64,000 bases of DNA, taken from positions 1 through 64,000 of the IMG/VR virus record IMGVR_UViG_3300037400_002350; one strand, written 5' to 3'. Each line of letters opens with the position of its first letter. The stretch's first letter is position 1. Shown here one piece after another: positions 2,792 to 11,623 of this stretch. The notes under the pieces are model-generated. The model did no database searches. It was given only the letters and a program-made list of their open reading frames with translations, and was not told the origin of the DNA. The position numbers were made by a program, and so were the translations under genes. The stretch comes from a virus (Duplodnaviria; Caudoviricetes).

Positions 2792-3221
2792 TCAAAACCG
2801 TATAAAAGGCGCTGTTAGAGCAATAATAACGGCCATCACGCAGTTGTTAAATGCAGAACACGTCGATGTAAGCACTCTCAATGACGACGAAGTAGCAAAC
2901 CTTTTAATAAAAGGAACAAATGCTACAAAGAACGCCGAAAAGAAAGAGTTAAATCTGTCTGACATAGAGTGTGCTTGTGAGTATATCCACCATTTATATG
3001 GAGAGGACATTATACGCATGCCTTCTTCTGAAATAGAAGCAGACTTGCTGTACAAAATACTCAACATCGACAATGTGCACACCGCAAAGCTCAAACAAGC
3101 TTGCCAAACAATAGTCGAAAACAAAGCGAAAGCCAATGTATGGTTTGCAAACAAACACGCCAAAACGTTATTGCAAAATGTATATAACGTAATGGCGTTA
3201 ATACAAAGCTGTAGAAGATAA
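2760..3221 (+). CDS. Hypothetical protein
   Basis: 153-aa ORF. Confidence 0.7.
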   Translation: MKAIVILHNGDQNRIKGAVRAIITAITQLLNAEHVDVSTLNDDEVANLLIKGTNATKNAEKKELNLSDIECACEYIHHLYGEDIIRMPSSEIEADLLYKILNIDNVHTAKLKQACQTIVENKAKANVWFANKHAKTLLQNVYNVMALIQSCRR

Positions 3222-3328
3222 TGAAACCAAACCAATTTGAGGACAGAAGAAACAACAAACGTCCTCCATATCACAGAGAGCAGAATCAGAAGTACAAACT
3301 GAAAAATTATGCATCTTACTATGGTTAA
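3221..3328 (+). CDS. Small basic peptide (35 aa, MKPNQFEDRRNNKRPPYHRE...)
   Basis: TAATG coupling with the upstream stop; fills the gap between genes. Confidence 0.45.
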   Translation: MKPNQFEDRRNNKRPPYHREQNQKYKLKNYASYYG

Positions 3329-3563
3329 AGTAACAATATCTGAAGGCCGAAAGGTAATAAATACAGTTATGTATAAAAACTTTCAAGAAGCCAATGCTGC
3401 AGCTTTTGCAATGCAAAGACTATCAGTCCTTGAAACAATCAAAGTCCCTGTGGACAAAGAATGTGTAAAAGAAGGACAATTTACGTTTAAAAAGATAGCT
3501 AACCCGTACTACGGTAAAACTATCGAAGTAGTAGCAAACAAATCAAAATTTAAAAAATCATAA
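3309..3563 (+). CDS. Hypothetical protein (start may be ATG 3321)
   Basis: 84-aa ORF. Confidence 0.65.
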   Translation: MHLTMVKVTISEGRKVINTVMYKNFQEANAAAFAMQRLSVLETIKVPVDKECVKEGQFTFKKIANPYYGKTIEVVANKSKFKKS

Positions 3564-3568
3564 TCAAT

Positions 3569-4168
3569 ATGGCTAAAGACGATAAAAACACACAGGCCGT
3601 TGTCACAACCGAAGACAACATTATGGAGGAAATCCGTAACACTAATCTCGCAGAAATAGATTTAGGCGAGAAAGTCATGGAAGAAATCAAGAAGGAGAAA
3701 GATGAGCGTAAGGCTCGCGAAATCAAGCAGCGCTATTTGCGTGCTGATTACAACGAGAAGCTTGCCAAAGTCGACATGCTTCACGTTAAACGCCTCAACG
3801 ACATCACCCGTTATCAGTTGACCCAATCAGGTCGTCTGCGTCGTCTCCTCATGGGTTTCAAGGTAGACAAACTGGCTATAGAGTACAGCAGTCACCACGA
3901 GGATGACATCCTGAACATGGAATCCTGCGATAAGAAGGCTGGAACTATCACTATCACAACTAAGTCTGGTAAGAAGACTTACAAAGATGGCGATAAAGTT
4001 CCTGCAGCCATCACTGTAGTAGAGTACGACCGTGCTTTGCAGACACTCGCTGACAAGATCCGCAACATGAAGAATGAAGAGGACAAGCAGCACAGCAAAG
4101 ACATCGACGAGCTCGACAACAGCTTCGGTGACTATTATGTAAGCTCTTGGCGTTACTTCCGTTGGTAG
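3569..4168 (+). CDS. Hypothetical coiled-coil protein (TAG stop), directly upstream of the motif-array RNA
   Basis: 199 aa, charged and helical; codon usage (AAG, ATC, CGT) suggests high expression. Confidence 0.8.
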   Translation: MAKDDKNTQAVVTTEDNIMEEIRNTNLAEIDLGEKVMEEIKKEKDERKAREIKQRYLRADYNEKLAKVDMLHVKRLNDITRYQLTQSGRLRRLLMGFKVDKLAIEYSSHHEDDILNMESCDKKAGTITITTKSGKKTYKDGDKVPAAITVVEYDRALQTLADKIRNMKNEEDKQHSKDIDELDNSFGDYYVSSWRYFRW

Positions 4169-4179
4169 ACCAAGGGGCT

Positions 4180-4485
4180 ATCCAAAACAAGAGCCTTTGA
4201 GCCACGTTTTAAAGAAAAGAGAATTGCCGGATTACAGATGAAGAGAGGCTTCGCCTATGCATGACACCGGATTCTTTAAATCACCCGAATTGACGGGTGC
4301 ACCAAGAACCTTTGAGCCACGGTGCGGATACAAAGCCGACTGCACGGGCTATAATATGCAGCGATTGATCAATCAAATGCGATGTGCAGAGTCAACGAGC
4401 CTGCTATTGCACACAATCGTTATCAAGAATTGAGATACAGCTATATTTCGAGCCAAGAGCCAATAATATATCCACTGTATCATTA
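4180..4485 (+). ncRNA. Candidate protein-sponge RNA: four hairpins each presenting GARYC-N2-3-GAGCC in the loop
   Basis: Stems AAAAC/GTTTT (4184-4210), GCACC/GGTGC (4299-4325), TGTGCA/TGCACA (4383-4413) and GATACAG/CTGTATC (4434-4481) each enclose the tandem motif. Confidence 0.6.
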
Positions 4486-4623
4486 ACAACTAAAACTCAG
4501 ATTATCTTTTCAATAATACTCAGAGACAGGGGGAGAACAGCTGCTCTCTCTGTCAAAGAGTATAATTTTAAGGACATGGAGTTTAAGTATTCTTGTCTGA
4601 TCAATAAGAATATTTACAATTGA

Positions 4624-4875
4624 AGTGTGTGTGAGGTAAACTGTTTGGACGAGGGTTCGATTCCCTCCAGGTCCACGTTGGCAATGCCAGCAATTTTTGC
4701 ATAAGCCCCTTCGGGGGCAATTGGGCCTGACATGGTTTTGACAGCAGTGGAAGTAAACACATTAAGCACTTTAATATAAAATTAACTGGCAATATTAATG
4801 TCAATGACTACACCAAGCTAGCAGCTTGATGGTTCTTACTAAGATTTAAGTCACGTGCTAACTACGAAAGTGAGG
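4624..4875 (+). ncRNA. ssrA: Circularly permuted (two-piece) tmRNA; tag (A)GNINVNDYTKLAA*
   Basis: T-arm GAGGG-TTCGATT-CCCTC and 3' acceptor CAGGTCC-A (4651-4675) lie before the 5' acceptor GGGCCTG (4723-4729, G3-U70 pair); D-loop TGGTTTTGAC; tag frame 4788-4829 follows TAACT; outer ends approximate. Confidence 0.88.
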
Positions 4876-4877
4876 AT

Positions 4878-4927
4878 TGGAAGTTGTCTAATTTTGGAGG
4901 CTTGGGGTTCGAATCCCCGACTTCCAA
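4878..4927 (+). ncRNA. tRNA-like mini-element (acceptor stem + T-arm, no canonical D or anticodon arm)
   Basis: TGGAAGT/ACTTCCA 7-bp stem; T-arm TGGGG-TTCGAAT-CCCCG; 18-nt connector. Confidence 0.65.
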
Positions 4928-5098: not shown

Positions 5099-5527
5099 AT
5101 GAAAAATAACACTAGTTACAAAGAAATGTTACGTAATCGAATACCAATAGAGCTAGACCTCACCTTAAAATGGTGTAAATGTAAAACTCAATGGGTTAAT
5201 TACGTATATTCTGAGTTTGTTCAAATATTTTCTGATAAGAAAGAAAGAGACAAGACGATTAGATATATTTTAAAAAAGAAAATCATGCCTGATCCATATG
5301 GAACATATAAAGACAAATTTGATTTTCATGGATGTATCAATTGGGACTGGCTCGATAAAAACGACGAAGAGTATTGGAGAACAGTAGAAGAATGGTTCAA
5401 CTGGTTTGACCATTATGTTCCCTTATTGCAGACATCGGATGATATCCTAGTTCTTTTAAACTCAGAAGATATTGAACAAAAAGAAGAATTACAAAAATTT
5501 CTTATTAAAAACATATGCAAAAGTTAA
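5099..5527 (+). CDS. Hypothetical Trp-rich protein
   Basis: 142-aa ORF. Confidence 0.7.
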   Translation: MKNNTSYKEMLRNRIPIELDLTLKWCKCKTQWVNYVYSEFVQIFSDKKERDKTIRYILKKKIMPDPYGTYKDKFDFHGCINWDWLDKNDEEYWRTVEEWFNWFDHYVPLLQTSDDILVLLNSEDIEQKEELQKFLIKNICKS

Positions 5528-6006
5528 GTGTATTTTCCACACATTTGATTCAGAGATTTTTACTGCGCAAAAAAGCAGAACTACAAAGATCTCCTACTCC
5601 TGACGAAATTGATAAGTGGATAACCGAAGATACCGTAAAAGAGTTACACAAAGAATTGTGTGAATCTCATTACGATCCATATTTGGTTCTACATCCAGAC
5701 TTTCGTCAGCATTTCGATCCTACTGATCCCGATGGAACAATGTTCAATAGATGTTCATATCTAGTATGTACCGTAAAAGAATTAAGAGAGATAATAACTT
5801 GGTCAATAGATAAAGTAATTGTTAATTTTGATTCTTATACTCCAGATACATTAGGTGTTTATACCAGAATTCTTACAGATAGGTTAAACCGCCTGTATTA
5901 TAAAAAGTACATTACCAAAGAGGAAAATATCTATATGCGAGATCATTTGATCGAAAATCTTCTCGGCTTTCGAAACGATTACAAATTGTTCGAATTGCCA
6001 TTCTAG
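5515..6006 (+). CDS. Hypothetical protein ending ELPF (TAG stop)
   Basis: 163-aa ORF. Confidence 0.7.
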   Translation: MQKLSVFSTHLIQRFLLRKKAELQRSPTPDEIDKWITEDTVKELHKELCESHYDPYLVLHPDFRQHFDPTDPDGTMFNRCSYLVCTVKELREIITWSIDKVIVNFDSYTPDTLGVYTRILTDRLNRLYYKKYITKEENIYMRDHLIENLLGFRNDYKLFELPF

Positions 6007-6045: not shown

Positions 6046-6142
6046 CTAAGCGTTTCGGTCACGCAAACAGGAGTGACACCTTAATAAACCGAACTTTCAG
6101 TAAAATTCCTTCTGAATTTAAAGAGGTATAATTTGTTTGATT

Positions 6143-6703
6143 ATGCAGAATCCTAGAATCACCCAAGAAGAAATTGGGATAATCAAAAAGGCTCAGGCTG
6201 GTGATATCACCGCCTTTAACCATATATTTAAGAAGTACAAGGGTTTTGTCGATCACGTACTATATCAGTACATAAAAGACAAAGATGAAGCAAAAGACAT
6301 GACCAATATTGTATTTCTGAAAGTATATGAGAAACTCTCGTCATTCAAAACCTATGACTCCTTTGGAGGATGGTTGAGAATTATAGCAAATCGCACTGCA
6401 ATTGATTATTTGCGTAGTTTAAAAGACAAGGAAGTAGATTTAGGCACAATCGATGTTAGGCCAACATTGGATACCTTATTCTGCAATAGGGACGATGATG
6501 TTGTAAATCATATAACCTATAAAGAATTGTTACAGGAGTTCAAAAAACTCCCAGAAACAACTCGCCGAATCTTTGAATTATTCTACGTAGAGAACTTAAC
6601 TGTAGAAGCGATTAGTGAACAGCTGAGTATCCCAACAGGAACTATAAAGTCAACGTTATCACGGACACGAAAGCGAATTAGAAAAACTTTTAAAAACGTG
6701 TAA
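6143..6703 (+). CDS. ECF-type (sigma-70 group 4) RNA polymerase sigma factor
   Basis: AQAGD..AF, region 2 (DMTNIVFLKVY...FGGWLRIIANRTAIDYLR) and region 4 HTH (LTVEAISEQLSIPTGTIKSTLSR). Confidence 0.92.
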   Translation: MQNPRITQEEIGIIKKAQAGDITAFNHIFKKYKGFVDHVLYQYIKDKDEAKDMTNIVFLKVYEKLSSFKTYDSFGGWLRIIANRTAIDYLRSLKDKEVDLGTIDVRPTLDTLFCNRDDDVVNHITYKELLQEFKKLPETTRRIFELFYVENLTVEAISEQLSIPTGTIKSTLSRTRKRIRKTFKNV

Positions 6704-6705
6704 CC

Positions 6706-7095
6706 ATGGAAATCTTACTTTGGATTGTTGTTGCATTCTTGCTAGCGTTAGCGATAGCTCGCTATAATGAAAGTAACAAAACGTTCTGGATTCTATTCAT
6801 CTCTTTGTTGATTGGAATCGCAGGAGGTTCTGTGTATAGTAAACTTACGCAGGACACCCAGAGTGAGCCTAATTCGTATGAGGGAGTATCTCCCACACAA
6901 GCGTCTCCATCGCAGTCAGACACATGTCTTTTGGCAGACTTGACGACAGGAACACCAACGTGCTATAAGCCAGAACTTGTGAGTCAGGAACATACTCCCG
7001 ACGCATACGAAGTACAGCTTACTCCAGTAAAAGGCCATGTCACGGTGGGCCTTAAACCACCAAGATTAGCATTTGAGTTTTTCAACACAAGTTGA
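6706..7095 (+). CDS. Membrane protein (2 N-terminal TM segments, low-complexity tail); possible anti-sigma by position
   Basis: Two hydrophobic helices; starts 2 nt after the sigma gene. Confidence 0.7.
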   Translation: MEILLWIVVAFLLALAIARYNESNKTFWILFISLLIGIAGGSVYSKLTQDTQSEPNSYEGVSPTQASPSQSDTCLLADLTTGTPTCYKPELVSQEHTPDAYEVQLTPVKGHVTVGLKPPRLAFEFFNTS

Positions 7096-8611: not shown

Positions 8612-9031
8612 ATGAAGAAATTCAGTAACATCATAGGATGCTTATTGTTCCTTGTAATAGGTGTGGGTATATCTCTGATTACCCTATCGCCACCTAAAAC
8701 GGGATACAAGACGTTGAGTGCTGCCAATACGACTCCAAGTCTAATTGGTTTTCAACAGTTTCCTTTCACCATTGGCAACGATGTGAAAGAAAAGGAGCAG
8801 GTTGTTATTCATGATACTATATATCGTGATAGCATAAAGTATGAACTTAAACGTACTCCTTATGTAGTTGTAGTTGCACCAAAGCCAAAACCTGCTGACA
8901 CTGTCACAACAGATACTAGCGTCCTTCCAAAAGAGGCTAGTCCTGATACGACTTTACATAAAGTAAAGATTCCAGTATTAGTTTCTATTAATGACAGCAT
9001 AGTCTATGCAGACTCTGTGAAAGTGAAATGA
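8612..9031 (+). CDS. Membrane-anchored hypothetical protein
   Basis: N-terminal TM helix; repeated DT/DS-hydrophobic motifs. Confidence 0.75.
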   Translation: MKKFSNIIGCLLFLVIGVGISLITLSPPKTGYKTLSAANTTPSLIGFQQFPFTIGNDVKEKEQVVIHDTIYRDSIKYELKRTPYVVVVAPKPKPADTVTTDTSVLPKEASPDTTLHKVKIPVLVSINDSIVYADSVKVK

Positions 9032-9037
9032 CAATGA

Positions 9038-9975
9038 AGAGGTCTCATTAGCCTCAGATTCTGTCAACACTTTATAATTTACTTGACCTGAGAATATGTA
9101 TACTCTCACTGAGAGAAGAAGCACAAATGCGGTGCGCAAAAGGTAGGGTGGAAGACATTAGAGTGTGAAAAGCTCTATTGTATAGGGGAAAGCGTCGCAA
9201 TAAACCCCTTTCTGGTCTGTGAGAACCGTCTGGTGACAGTAGTCAAGAGAAGACGCGTAAATCTCAAGATGAGTAAAACTATTGCCGTATCGGACACACT
9301 GGTTGATTGTGTATAAAACCAGCATAACGTAACACGAGTCGAAACATGCTTGGCCGAGACCAAGAGAAGTCCGCTGTATGCAGATACATATCTAAGGCAC
9401 AGCATCCGAAACAAGCGTGATACACATTACAATGTCCACATCATAGTGTTCTAGGAGGTCCAAACTCCGATATGAAGGTGATAACCGTATTAGACCATAA
9501 GAAACTACTTATGGAATGTATCGTAAATATGTTGCCTATGTAAGTCCAGTCCAGTGCAAATCTGGTGCCTCTCGTTGCCACGCGTAGGGGATCTAGTTGG
9601 TAAAACGGCTGATATAATATGGAATACTGTACAGCTTTGGTCGTTAGAGCAGTATAAATAAGACAAATGACCGGATGGAGGATGCAGCTCCATATGCGAC
9701 GAGAGACCGCGTACAAAGTCTGACGTGAACAGGGAATTCTTTGGACAAGAGGAACCTGATAGATTAAGAAATGCTTAGTCTATATATTAGTGTGTGAGCT
9801 ACTAAAAGCCTATTTCATAATATTTTTTGGTAAACTGTATTGACCAGCACATTCCAGTGTTGTAAATCTCTCAGTTTTCCAGTGCAGCATGAAAATAGTA
9901 TGTAAGATGTATGTTTCAACTATACTCCATTTGCATTAGTCAAATCTGATGATGTTGTTCATATAAGCACTGCAT
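9038..9975 (+). ncRNA. Candidate large structured ncRNA (domain 1)
   Basis: No credible CDS; long-range helix ACTGAGAGA(9108-9116)/TCTCTCAGT(9867-9875); CTCTCGTTGC/GCGACGAGAG; many hairpins with GNRA-like loops; boundaries approximate. Confidence 0.6.
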
Positions 9976-10019
9976 ATAAATATAATGTGAAACAAAACCA
10001 AACAAATCATTAATTTAGA

Positions 10020-10880
10020 ATGTCCCCCGATAGGGCCCCCTTTCGTTGTATGAAAGAACTGAGGTCGGGAAGTTCGAGTGCCAACCGTAACTGTGAAAAA
10101 ATTAGATAGAATAGGTAGTTTAGGGTATGTAGCAGCAACTACATAAAACGGCGAGCCTATAGAATCGTATACATTTAACTGATGGGCAGCTTACCGTAGC
10201 CATTAAACGCAGTGCAAAAGCGTATGCAGGTATATTACTATCCCCTGTCTCGGGATGTGTGATAAGCAAGGTAGGTGGGTGACAAGGAGCGATGTATGGG
10301 TTGAATTCCCCAGTGTTCGTGCACTATAAACAAGGACGGAAGTAAATCCTAGAGTCAGAACAACCGTAGGGTCTATGATGAGTTCTGGAGCTCTGAGACC
10401 GTTCGATAATGAAACGTTGTGTAGTTACGTCGATATGTAGAAAAATACACTGAGCACGGTAGTGTTACTGTTAGGCTCATAAAATAATCAGAAGCGCACC
10501 AGGAGAAATATATCAGAATCAAACACAGGAAAATACAGATACGATATACGTCCACATCCGTGGACTTTCTCCAAAGACATATTGGTTGTATTTTGGAGAT
10601 CTCTCAACTAGTGAACCCTCCGCGAATCCTGAATCATCAGAGCGCTTAGTGGAGGTCTCCGAGATATTTTTTGAGTAAAACAAATAATTGCTCAGTTCTA
10701 GCACTTGAGTGTGCATTTTGGCATTCAAAGCTTTGTCAAACGGCTTGCTTATGGGCACAGATGACCATATCGCTTGGTCCCCGTCATGTTTAATCCTGAC
10801 TGCTATAATTCGCGTATGCGTTGCGACTAGGTGTCAATATGACTATGTATAGTCGAAAGCGTGGCAATGAAGCCAACCAA
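10020..10880 (+). ncRNA. Candidate large structured ncRNA (domain 2)
   Basis: Long-range GAGTGCCAA(10076-84)/TTGGCATTC(~10718-26) and CGTAACTGTG(10086-95)/TGTAGTTACG(10420-29); more than 10 local hairpins; boundaries approximate. Confidence 0.55.
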
Positions 10881-11005
10881 ATAAAGAACAATAGAACGAA
10901 GAGCAAAATATAAAATTTTTTAAAAAGGCAAAGTGTGGGCCAATCACACATATTACAATAATTTTTCGTTGGTCACATCAACGACGATATCAAAAAGGAA
11001 AAATT

Positions 11006-11623
11006 ATGGGAAAAGTATCAAAACCAACAATCGAAAATAACCGCAAAGTCTTTATGCTTGCTGGTGGATTGCTTGGTACAAGTATCTACAAAGTAGAAGC
11101 TCGCTCATGCGATGCAGGTTGGGAAAACAAGAACCTGAAGTTCAAAACCGAAAAGACTGGGGATTTGTTCCTCAACCGCGAAATCAAGCGTTGTGTCATG
11201 AAAGACTTCAACGTAGTGACAGTAGAAGCAGATGAGACGTCTGGTGACGGCTATGTTTCTCCAAACGCTAAGCTCGTTCTCGACGACGAGTCAACAATCA
11301 CGCTGCCTATCGCAGGCGATTTGTCTTCAATCGGTAAGGTTGAGGAAGACGCTATGCTGAAGGCTTTACGTGGCGACAAGAACATTTTCTTCGACAACGC
11401 AAAGAAGACACACGAAGAATGTAAAGCACGCAACGATGCGAACATCCGCTACGTTGAGGCACTTATGGAAGAGCTCAAGGGCATCAAGCAGTCTTTGATC
11501 ACTGCTAATGTCAACAACGAGAAACTCGTGAAGAAGTACGAGGAAGAGCTCGTAAAGAGCGCTGCTCTTGTTCCAGACCCAAACGAGAAGATTCACGTGC
11601 ATGTGGAAATCCCACAGGACTAA
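11006..11623 (+). CDS. Hypothetical protein
   Basis: 205-aa ORF, biased codon usage. Confidence 0.8.
   Translation: MGKVSKPTIENNRKVFMLAGGLLGTSIYKVEARSCDAGWENKNLKFKTEKTGDLFLNREIKRCVMKDFNVVTVEADETSGDGYVSPNAKLVLDDESTITLPIAGDLSSIGKVEEDAMLKALRGDKNIFFDNAKKTHEECKARNDANIRYVEALMEELKGIKQSLITANVNNEKLVKKYEEELVKSAALVPDPNEKIHVHVEIPQD

Follow-up and report, generated by a model that had tools for sequence, protein, structure and literature searches.

Several large structured RNAs offer points of comparison for the locus described here. OLE is a large structured RNA that is encoded beside membrane-protein genes and forms a membrane-bound particle with their products; it measures ~600 nt and is bacterial (Bacillota), not phage-borne. 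Phages and prophages carry GOLLD and ROOL, large pseudoknotted non-coding RNAs with several domains, of unknown function and without a known protein partner. Both form RNA-only multimers, as seen by cryo-EM (PMC12286853). Among the Crassvirales, the long intergenic regions of phage phi14:2 (g004–g006) are transcribed in the gene direction, early, persistently, and above most genes (bioRxiv 10.1101/2020.03.07.982082). In the genome of this Cellulophaga phage (NC_021806.1), a CDS-free stretch of ~1.7 kb at 2904–4602, which corresponds to its highly transcribed long ncRNAs, lies a few kb upstream of the PolB/DNA polymerase module. phi14:2 belongs to Steigviridae, and the structure and conservation of its ncRNAs are undescribed.

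The element examined in this work occupies positions 9032 to 11005 (+ strand) of a 64,000-nt stretch of the virus record IMGVR_UViG_3300037400_002350, hereafter the window. The complete record, 100,968 bp (~101 kb) with direct terminal repeats, is the genome of a crAss-like phage, in which the element is single-copy and fixed in position. We conclude that it represents a new phage RNA family, very large and structured, of the "large ornate phage RNA" type. Like GOLLD and ROOL, it is multi-domain and pseudoknotted; it is, however, ~2 to 3 times longer, matches neither in sequence or structure, and forms a fixed syntenic core of one lytic phage family, whereas GOLLD and ROOL are patchy accessory elements. 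Unlike them, it does not stand beside a tRNA array in the window. Its upstream neighbours encode membrane-anchored proteins, as in the case of OLE, although the element is ~2 kb long and phage-borne, and no homology to OapA/B/C was found among the neighbouring proteins. With phi14:2 it shares a Crassvirales genome and a CDS-free stretch a few kb upstream of a DNA polymerase module. The phi14:2 stretch was rejected as a homologue; R1, a covariance model built in this analysis that covers the 5' core only, gave at best 6.1 bits within 2904–4602. In size class, number of helices, pseudoknot-type tertiary pairings, A-rich conserved joining regions, and invariant single-stranded loops, the element resembles group II introns and RNase P RNA, but unlike these it has no Rfam match, no exon junctions, a single copy, and a fixed position.

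The initial annotation, made from the sequence of 9038–9975, had proposed a domain of a large structured ncRNA outside any known family, and a cmscan against Rfam 15 bears this out. No match was obtained in the element region at the gathering score, and lowering the threshold to E ≤ 10 for 8800–11200 yielded noise only, namely snoRNA-type matches below the gathering score; nine diverse relatives gave no match inside the element at the gathering score. The covariance models of GOLLD (RF01998) and ROOL (RF03087) were matched neither in the window, nor in 8800–11200 (E ≤ 10), nor in the nine relatives. The OLE model (RF01071) was likewise unmatched. The group I and group II intron models (RF00028, RF00029, clan CL00102) found nothing at E ≤ 10, and neither RNase P RNA, tmRNA, nor rRNA models matched in the element, the only tmRNA match of the window lying elsewhere (4625–4829). 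Since the region and the nine relatives are devoid of Rfam matches, GOLLD, ROOL, OLE, group I/II introns, RNase P, and tmRNA are excluded as families. We found no published description of the element in the open-access literature searched, which included Yutin 2021, a 2023 Crassvirales review, and the 2025 phage group II intron paper.

Coding content and distribution of the element

The flagged segment, 9038–9975, is the 5' half of a gap of ~1.97 kb (9032–11005) without a + strand ORF of at least 60 aa. The gap begins after the stop at 9031 of a gene for a 139-aa membrane-anchored protein and ends before the ATG at 11006 of a gene for a 205-aa protein; all neighbouring genes are on the + strand. 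Reading TAG as Gln, TGA as Trp, or TAA as Gln opened no long frame. The longest + strand ORF of the element itself, 47 aa, does not exceed the length expected from shuffled sequence (66 ± 18 aa), and across the element and 21 relatives the longest + strand ORFs measure 40–101 aa at unrelated positions, with no conserved ORF among them. The absence of coding noted from the sequence was therefore confirmed and extended beyond the flagged half. The accompanying impression of a higher GC content than in spacers carries little weight, as the GC content of 0.42–0.44 is inside the range of the flanking coding sequence. Small "hypothetical protein" CDSs are annotated within the element in public records, at 2319–2480 in cr125_1, 3964–4149 in cr10_1, and 5215–5721 in relative L002, with many in L003. 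These look like annotation artefacts, and the cr125_1 and cr10_1 examples overlap the match to the conserved RNA core.

A blastn search against phage records returned partial matches confined to the Crassvirales, family Suoliviridae. In each matched record the match is held by a gap of ~1.85–2.4 kb without a credible CDS, flanked by a protein of ~130–150 aa with an N-terminal membrane anchor and then by one of ~190–205 aa. Both flanking ORFs are intact in every relative, each being an independent gene that keeps its own start and stop codons. The element is present in all five subfamilies of the Suoliviridae (Oafivirinae, Loutivirinae, Bearivirinae, Uncouvirinae, and Boorivirinae), and its conserved blocks are always found together, their order unchanged and their total length nearly constant at 2.0–2.4 kb. 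When IMG/VR was scanned with the most conserved 18-mer as an exact pattern, at least 107 contigs were found, mostly of 95–105 kb. R1 scored 51–121 bits for the 5' core in 93 of 100 IMG/VR loci found via the motif of the invariant loop described below, and it also picks up the Boorivirinae and Uncouvirinae copies. In all true homologues this loop motif sits 190–300 nt downstream of the upstream ORF, within a gap of 2.0–2.3 kb.

Candidates from outside the family did not hold. In crAss001, R1 gave 18.9 bits in a 235-nt spacer lacking the invariant loop; in the Intestiviridae genome cr271_1 the R1 match falls inside a helicase gene, and both were rejected. A search of a further Intestiviridae genome, cr107_1, with R1 returned nothing, and a related-locus search with the 205-aa neighbour protein found no relatives. 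Scanning bacterial and MAG assemblies for the motif gave mostly chance matches (~280 expected by our own estimate). The only true copy there is in JAJWOH010000001.1, a crAss-like contig of 101,563 bp scoring 94.8 bits with R1. This full-length contig is binned with a Segatella copri MAG, a weak hint at S. copri as host. We know of no cultured Suoliviridae isolate.

Conservation was assessed in a G-INS-i alignment of 22 representatives, whose pairwise nucleotide identity over the element is 40–92% (mean 52%), with invariant blocks. Nucleotide conservation is higher in the element than in the flanking coding sequence, and the flanking proteins of the relatives are only 14–35% identical to those encoded in the window. 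Two stretches are poorly conserved, 9726–10015 and 10430–10690.

Covariation and architecture of the element

The base pairs of the element co-vary strongly, in agreement with a conserved folded RNA. For domain 1, the RNAalifold consensus structure, counted on an alignment built by the tool itself, was compared with controls in which the partners were slid by 1–3 columns and with 500 shuffles. In this structure 85.0% of the cells are paired (35–44% in the slid controls), 279 cells are changed on both sides (48–75), and the covariation score is 0.392 (≤0.097); none of the 500 shuffles reached the observed value in any of the five measures. The 5' core, in a model-based alignment of 57 distinct sequences, is 86.5% paired vs 32–48%, with a covariation score of 0.72 vs ≤0.14. 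Domain 2, beyond 10000, was evaluated with our own script and behaves alike, being 86.3% paired (34–45% in slid controls) with 200 cells changed on both sides (19–43).

Of the properties generally looked for in a conserved structured RNA, compensatory changes thus exceed the controls, the slid values being 2 to 7 times lower, whereas thermodynamic stability does not exceed that of dinucleotide shuffles. The folding energy of 9038–9975 has z = −1.24, four sub-domains have z = −1.05, −0.47, −0.65, and +0.86, and one sub-domain folds better on the − strand (z = −2.48). Folding energy had been put forward at the outset as a test that could refute the proposal, and by that measure alone the proposal would fail; covariation, likewise named there, is the stronger test compared with single-sequence folding energy, and the element passes it.

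The fold proposed initially fared less well than the proposal itself. All eight of its helices can be located in the window, at the places given or close to them, but only three are conserved and co-varying. CTGGTT/AACCAG is 71–79% paired, CCATAAG/CTTATGG coincides with a conserved co-varying helix of domain 1, and ATACTG/CAGTAT coincides with stem 1 of pseudoknot B (below). The other five are at background. Among them is the 9-bp helix 9108–9116/9867–9875, which was thought to close ~750 nt and is 43% paired in 22 relatives; CTCTCGTTGC/GCGACGAGAG, ATAGATTAAG/CTTAGTCTAT, GCTGT/ACAGC, and CAGTGC/GCACTG are 25–47% paired. Most details of the initial fold are hence wrong, while its central claim of a structured ncRNA is supported by synteny, covariation, and the absence of an Rfam match.

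The first conserved feature of the element (all positions on the + strand) is a 5' hairpin at 9039–9055, in which a GAGG/CCUC stem carries a conserved 9-nt loop, UCUCAUUAG. The stem varies among relatives (GAGG/CCUC, GGG/CCC, UAGG/CCUA, and GGAAAGGG/CCCUUUCC), and a hairpin of this form is missing from Loutivirinae and Bearivirinae. Many Oafivirinae relatives carry, ~40–60 nt 5' of this hairpin, a shared motif resembling AAGCTTTGCGCTTAG (alignment columns 75–95; L002, L004, L022, L028, L050, L085, L091, and L110) that is missing from the window and might act as a promoter or in processing. Next, at 9081–9149, a conserved strand, ACUUGAYCNGAGAAUAUGU, accompanies the helix 9086–9089/9146–9149, which is 97.7% paired with four of four pairs changing on both sides. 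This helix surrounds a small co-varying hairpin, 9100–9106/9111–9117, that is 86% paired.

The following segment, 9134–9262, was described with a hand-built model of three hairpins (H1–H3) and a pseudoknot. H1 (9155–9163/9173–9181) has a conserved UGAAAA loop, and every one of its pairs changes on both sides, with up to 5 pair types. H2 (9185–9208), with a GGGG/CCCC stem, co-varies and is 82–90% paired. H3 (9214–9219/9237–9243), all six stem pairs of which co-vary, closes a 17-nt loop at 9220–9236, TGAGAACCGTCTGGTGA / UGAGAACCGUCUGGUGA, in which only two positions vary among the sequences of all subfamilies sampled. In pseudoknot A, GCGU of the H2 loop (9192–9195) pairs with ACGC (9253–9256). 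These positions are 98.8% paired in the alignment to the hand-built model, with the second pair occurring as CG, GC, AU, or UA. In the 57 distinct sequences, aligned with a model that did not contain this pseudoknot, they are 98.2% paired, and the middle pair is CG in 36, GC in 9, UA in 5, and AU in 4. Candidate long-range pairings of the invariant loop with 9041–9048 and 9628–9635 vary on one side only.

Further along domain 1, the CUGGUU/AACCAG hairpin at 9299–9322 shows up to 6 pair types per position. A run of co-varying hairpins follows at 9441–9567, comprising 9441–9444/9478–9481 around 9453–9457/9465–9470, then 9495–9501/9508–9514, and 9549–9553/9563–9567; these are 85–94% paired, and most pairs change on both sides. 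One more hairpin in this run, 9515–9520/9528–9533 (88% paired, 2–5 pair types), comes from the RNAalifold consensus only and is outside the structure counted for the domain 1 statistics. Two H-type pseudoknots lie within 9596–9726. In pseudoknot B (9624–9672), the stem 9624–9630/9649–9655 crosses 9639–9644/9667–9672; stem 1 has a core that is paired throughout (100%), and stem 2, at 88% pairing, has three pairs that change on both sides. Pseudoknot C (9695–9721) has the stem 9695–9698/9708–9711 crossing 9704–9707/9718–9721 and is 95% paired, one of its pairs being AU in 7, CG in 3, GU in 3, UA in 1, and UG in 1. Between the two stands a GGAG/CUCC hairpin (9677–9691) with the loop consensus NUGGGCAG, all six pairs of which change on both sides. 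These data support at least three pseudoknots in the element. The domain is followed by an A-rich variable linker (9726–10015; conservation 0.24–0.47) with lineage-specific hairpins, which includes the non-conserved helices of the initial fold.

A second conserved core, domain 2, extends over 10020–10430. Its consensus structure includes the helices 10027–10031/10064–10068, 10040–10044/10052–10056, 10239–10244/10252–10257, and 10365–10373/10397–10405, together with a T-loop-like GGG-UUGAAUU-CCC at 10297–10312. A third conserved patch (10695–10790) contains the hairpins 10701–10704/10711–10714 and 10763–10767/10775–10779, which are 90–98% paired with three to four pair types. The 3' module, 10960–11005, consists of an outer stem (10960–10967/10998–11005) and an inner hairpin (10967–10971/10979–10983), and both co-vary in all groups. 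The two stems share nucleotides, surround the A-rich leader UCAAAAAGG, and end one base before the ATG at 11006. The module is a putative operator or switch acting on translation of the 205-aa gene, and it is the sole part of the element for which a function in cis can be argued.

Taken together, the element is non-coding, is conserved in place, in length, and in patches of sequence, and has many co-varying helices and at least three pseudoknots around an invariant 17-nt loop.

Strand, signals, and neighbouring genes

The + strand is the likely RNA strand. It is favoured by the orientation of the neighbouring genes, by conserved unpaired columns that are A-rich (A 133, U 63, G 30, and C 18), by an excess of G-U in the hand-curated helices (G-U 59 vs A-C 20, with some selection bias), and by a 3' module abutting a + strand start codon. 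Structure alone leaves the strand unfixed, as helices predicted on both strands have 88 G-U and 79 A-C and thus carry no strand signal; the argument from G-U pairs in the initial annotation does not settle the matter. No + strand terminator was found in the element, and no promoter was identified there. A sigma-70-like site is present at 9958–9986, and such sites number 5, below the 7.3 expected from shuffles.

The DNA polymerase module is found a few kb downstream of the element. The block of co-oriented genes that contains the element also includes, at 6137–7095, a gene for an ECF-type sigma factor (Pfam Sigma70_r2 and Sigma70_r4_2) and, behind it, one for a small protein that weakly matches the transmembrane domain family DUF4131. 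Apart from the ECF sigma factor, Pfam and PHROGs assigned no family to the neighbouring proteins, and a PDB profile search of these proteins found nothing. An AlphaFold2 model of the 205-aa protein (pLDDT 77) had no Foldseek match, and an ESM Atlas search with a neighbouring 457-aa protein gave no usable match.

The window encodes other RNAs as well. At 4586–4920 is a phage-encoded circularly permuted (two-piece) tmRNA (Rfam RF04321, 72.1 bits, matched over 4625–4829), for which ARAGORN gives the tag peptide GNINVNDYTKLAA*; relatives L050 and L013 also have this tmRNA family. At positions 1–48, the window start truncates a tRNA gene, of which the 3' part remains (RF00005, 32.2 bits).

Possible function and alternative explanations

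Our preferred reading, to which we assign a probability of roughly 0.6, is that 9038–9975 is the 5' domain of a ~1.95-kb, very large structured ncRNA locus, a core syntenic feature of the Suoliviridae that is read on the + strand and acts mainly in trans. The RNA would be transcribed within or beside an early/middle transcription unit that holds the ECF sigma factor gene, membrane-protein genes, and, downstream, replication genes. Once folded, it may act during infection mainly in trans, as a scaffold or a catalytic core, with the invariant single-stranded loop as a possible point of contact with a conserved partner. A separate switch, acting in cis at the translation start of the next gene, could be formed by the final 45 nt.

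That last feature is also what an alternative builds on, in which the locus is no free-standing RNA but a very long modular 5' leader, a cis-acting UTR for stability, processing, or translation of the transcript from the 205-aa gene onward. The co-varying double stem around an A-rich translation start region would suit such a leader, as would the lack of a + strand terminator between the element and the 205-aa gene in a series of genes all on one strand. We consider it unlikely, however, because 2 kb with at least three pseudoknots and loops invariant family-wide would serve a protein only 14–35% identical among relatives, the conserved cores lie 600–1900 nt from the start codon, and such size and complexity are far beyond any known bacterial or phage leader. 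It is also possible to see the locus as a tight string of independent smaller structured RNAs, comprising the 5' core, domain 2, the third patch, and the 3' operator. Conservation is indeed patchy, being weak at 9726–10015 and 10430–10690, and there is the sigma-70-like site at 9958–9986. No co-varying helix linking the blocks was found; a naive stack scan for inter-domain helices gave 66 antiparallel hits vs 57 parallel (null) hits, no better than the null. Yet all five subfamilies have every block, in one order and at near-constant total length, variable expansion segments are common in large RNAs, and sigma-70-like sites are fewer than in shuffles, which makes a string of separate RNAs improbable in our view.

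Two further explanations fit the data poorly. A DNA-level element, either a replication origin or a packaging site with hairpins acting in DNA, would be in keeping with the nearness of the DNA polymerase module, a few kb downstream. Covariation in pseudoknots and in dozens of compensatory helices is, in contrast, the signature of a folded single strand; moreover, origins have repeats and AT-rich unwinding elements, whereas no iterons were seen in the alignments and the cumulative GC skew passes straight through the region. A role in DNA is thus very improbable. Even less credible is a self-splicing intron of group I or II that is degenerate or lacks an ORF, or some other known ribozyme. Crassvirales are reportedly rich in introns, and the size of the element would fit a group II intron, but no Rfam intron, RNase P, or ribozyme model matched at E ≤ 10, nor in nine relatives at the gathering score. 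The completeness of the flanking genes in every relative and the single site occupied family-wide, unlike that of a mobile intron, also argue against it.

Beyond the preferred reading of a mainly trans-acting RNA locus, a bolder version can be entertained tentatively, although we regard it as rather doubtful. Here the whole 1.95 kb would be one RNA, the largest structured phage ncRNA known, and a machine on which every Suoliviridae infection depends, working as a ribozyme or as an assembly of RNA alone or of RNA and protein, with the loop UGAGAACCGUCUGGUGA as its active or docking site. As pure speculation, the invariant loop may dock a component of the host translation machinery, as it contains UGGU, complementary to the 3'-ACCA end of tRNA.

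The Suoliviridae are among the commonest human and animal gut phages, and the element could serve as a sequence marker for the family. If it is one RNA of ~2 kb, it would be two to three times as large as GOLLD or ROOL and, ribosomal RNA and introns aside, no structured RNA class of unknown function would be larger. That 2% of a tightly packed phage genome is kept protein-free and pseudoknotted family-wide points to an important RNA-based function in these phages.
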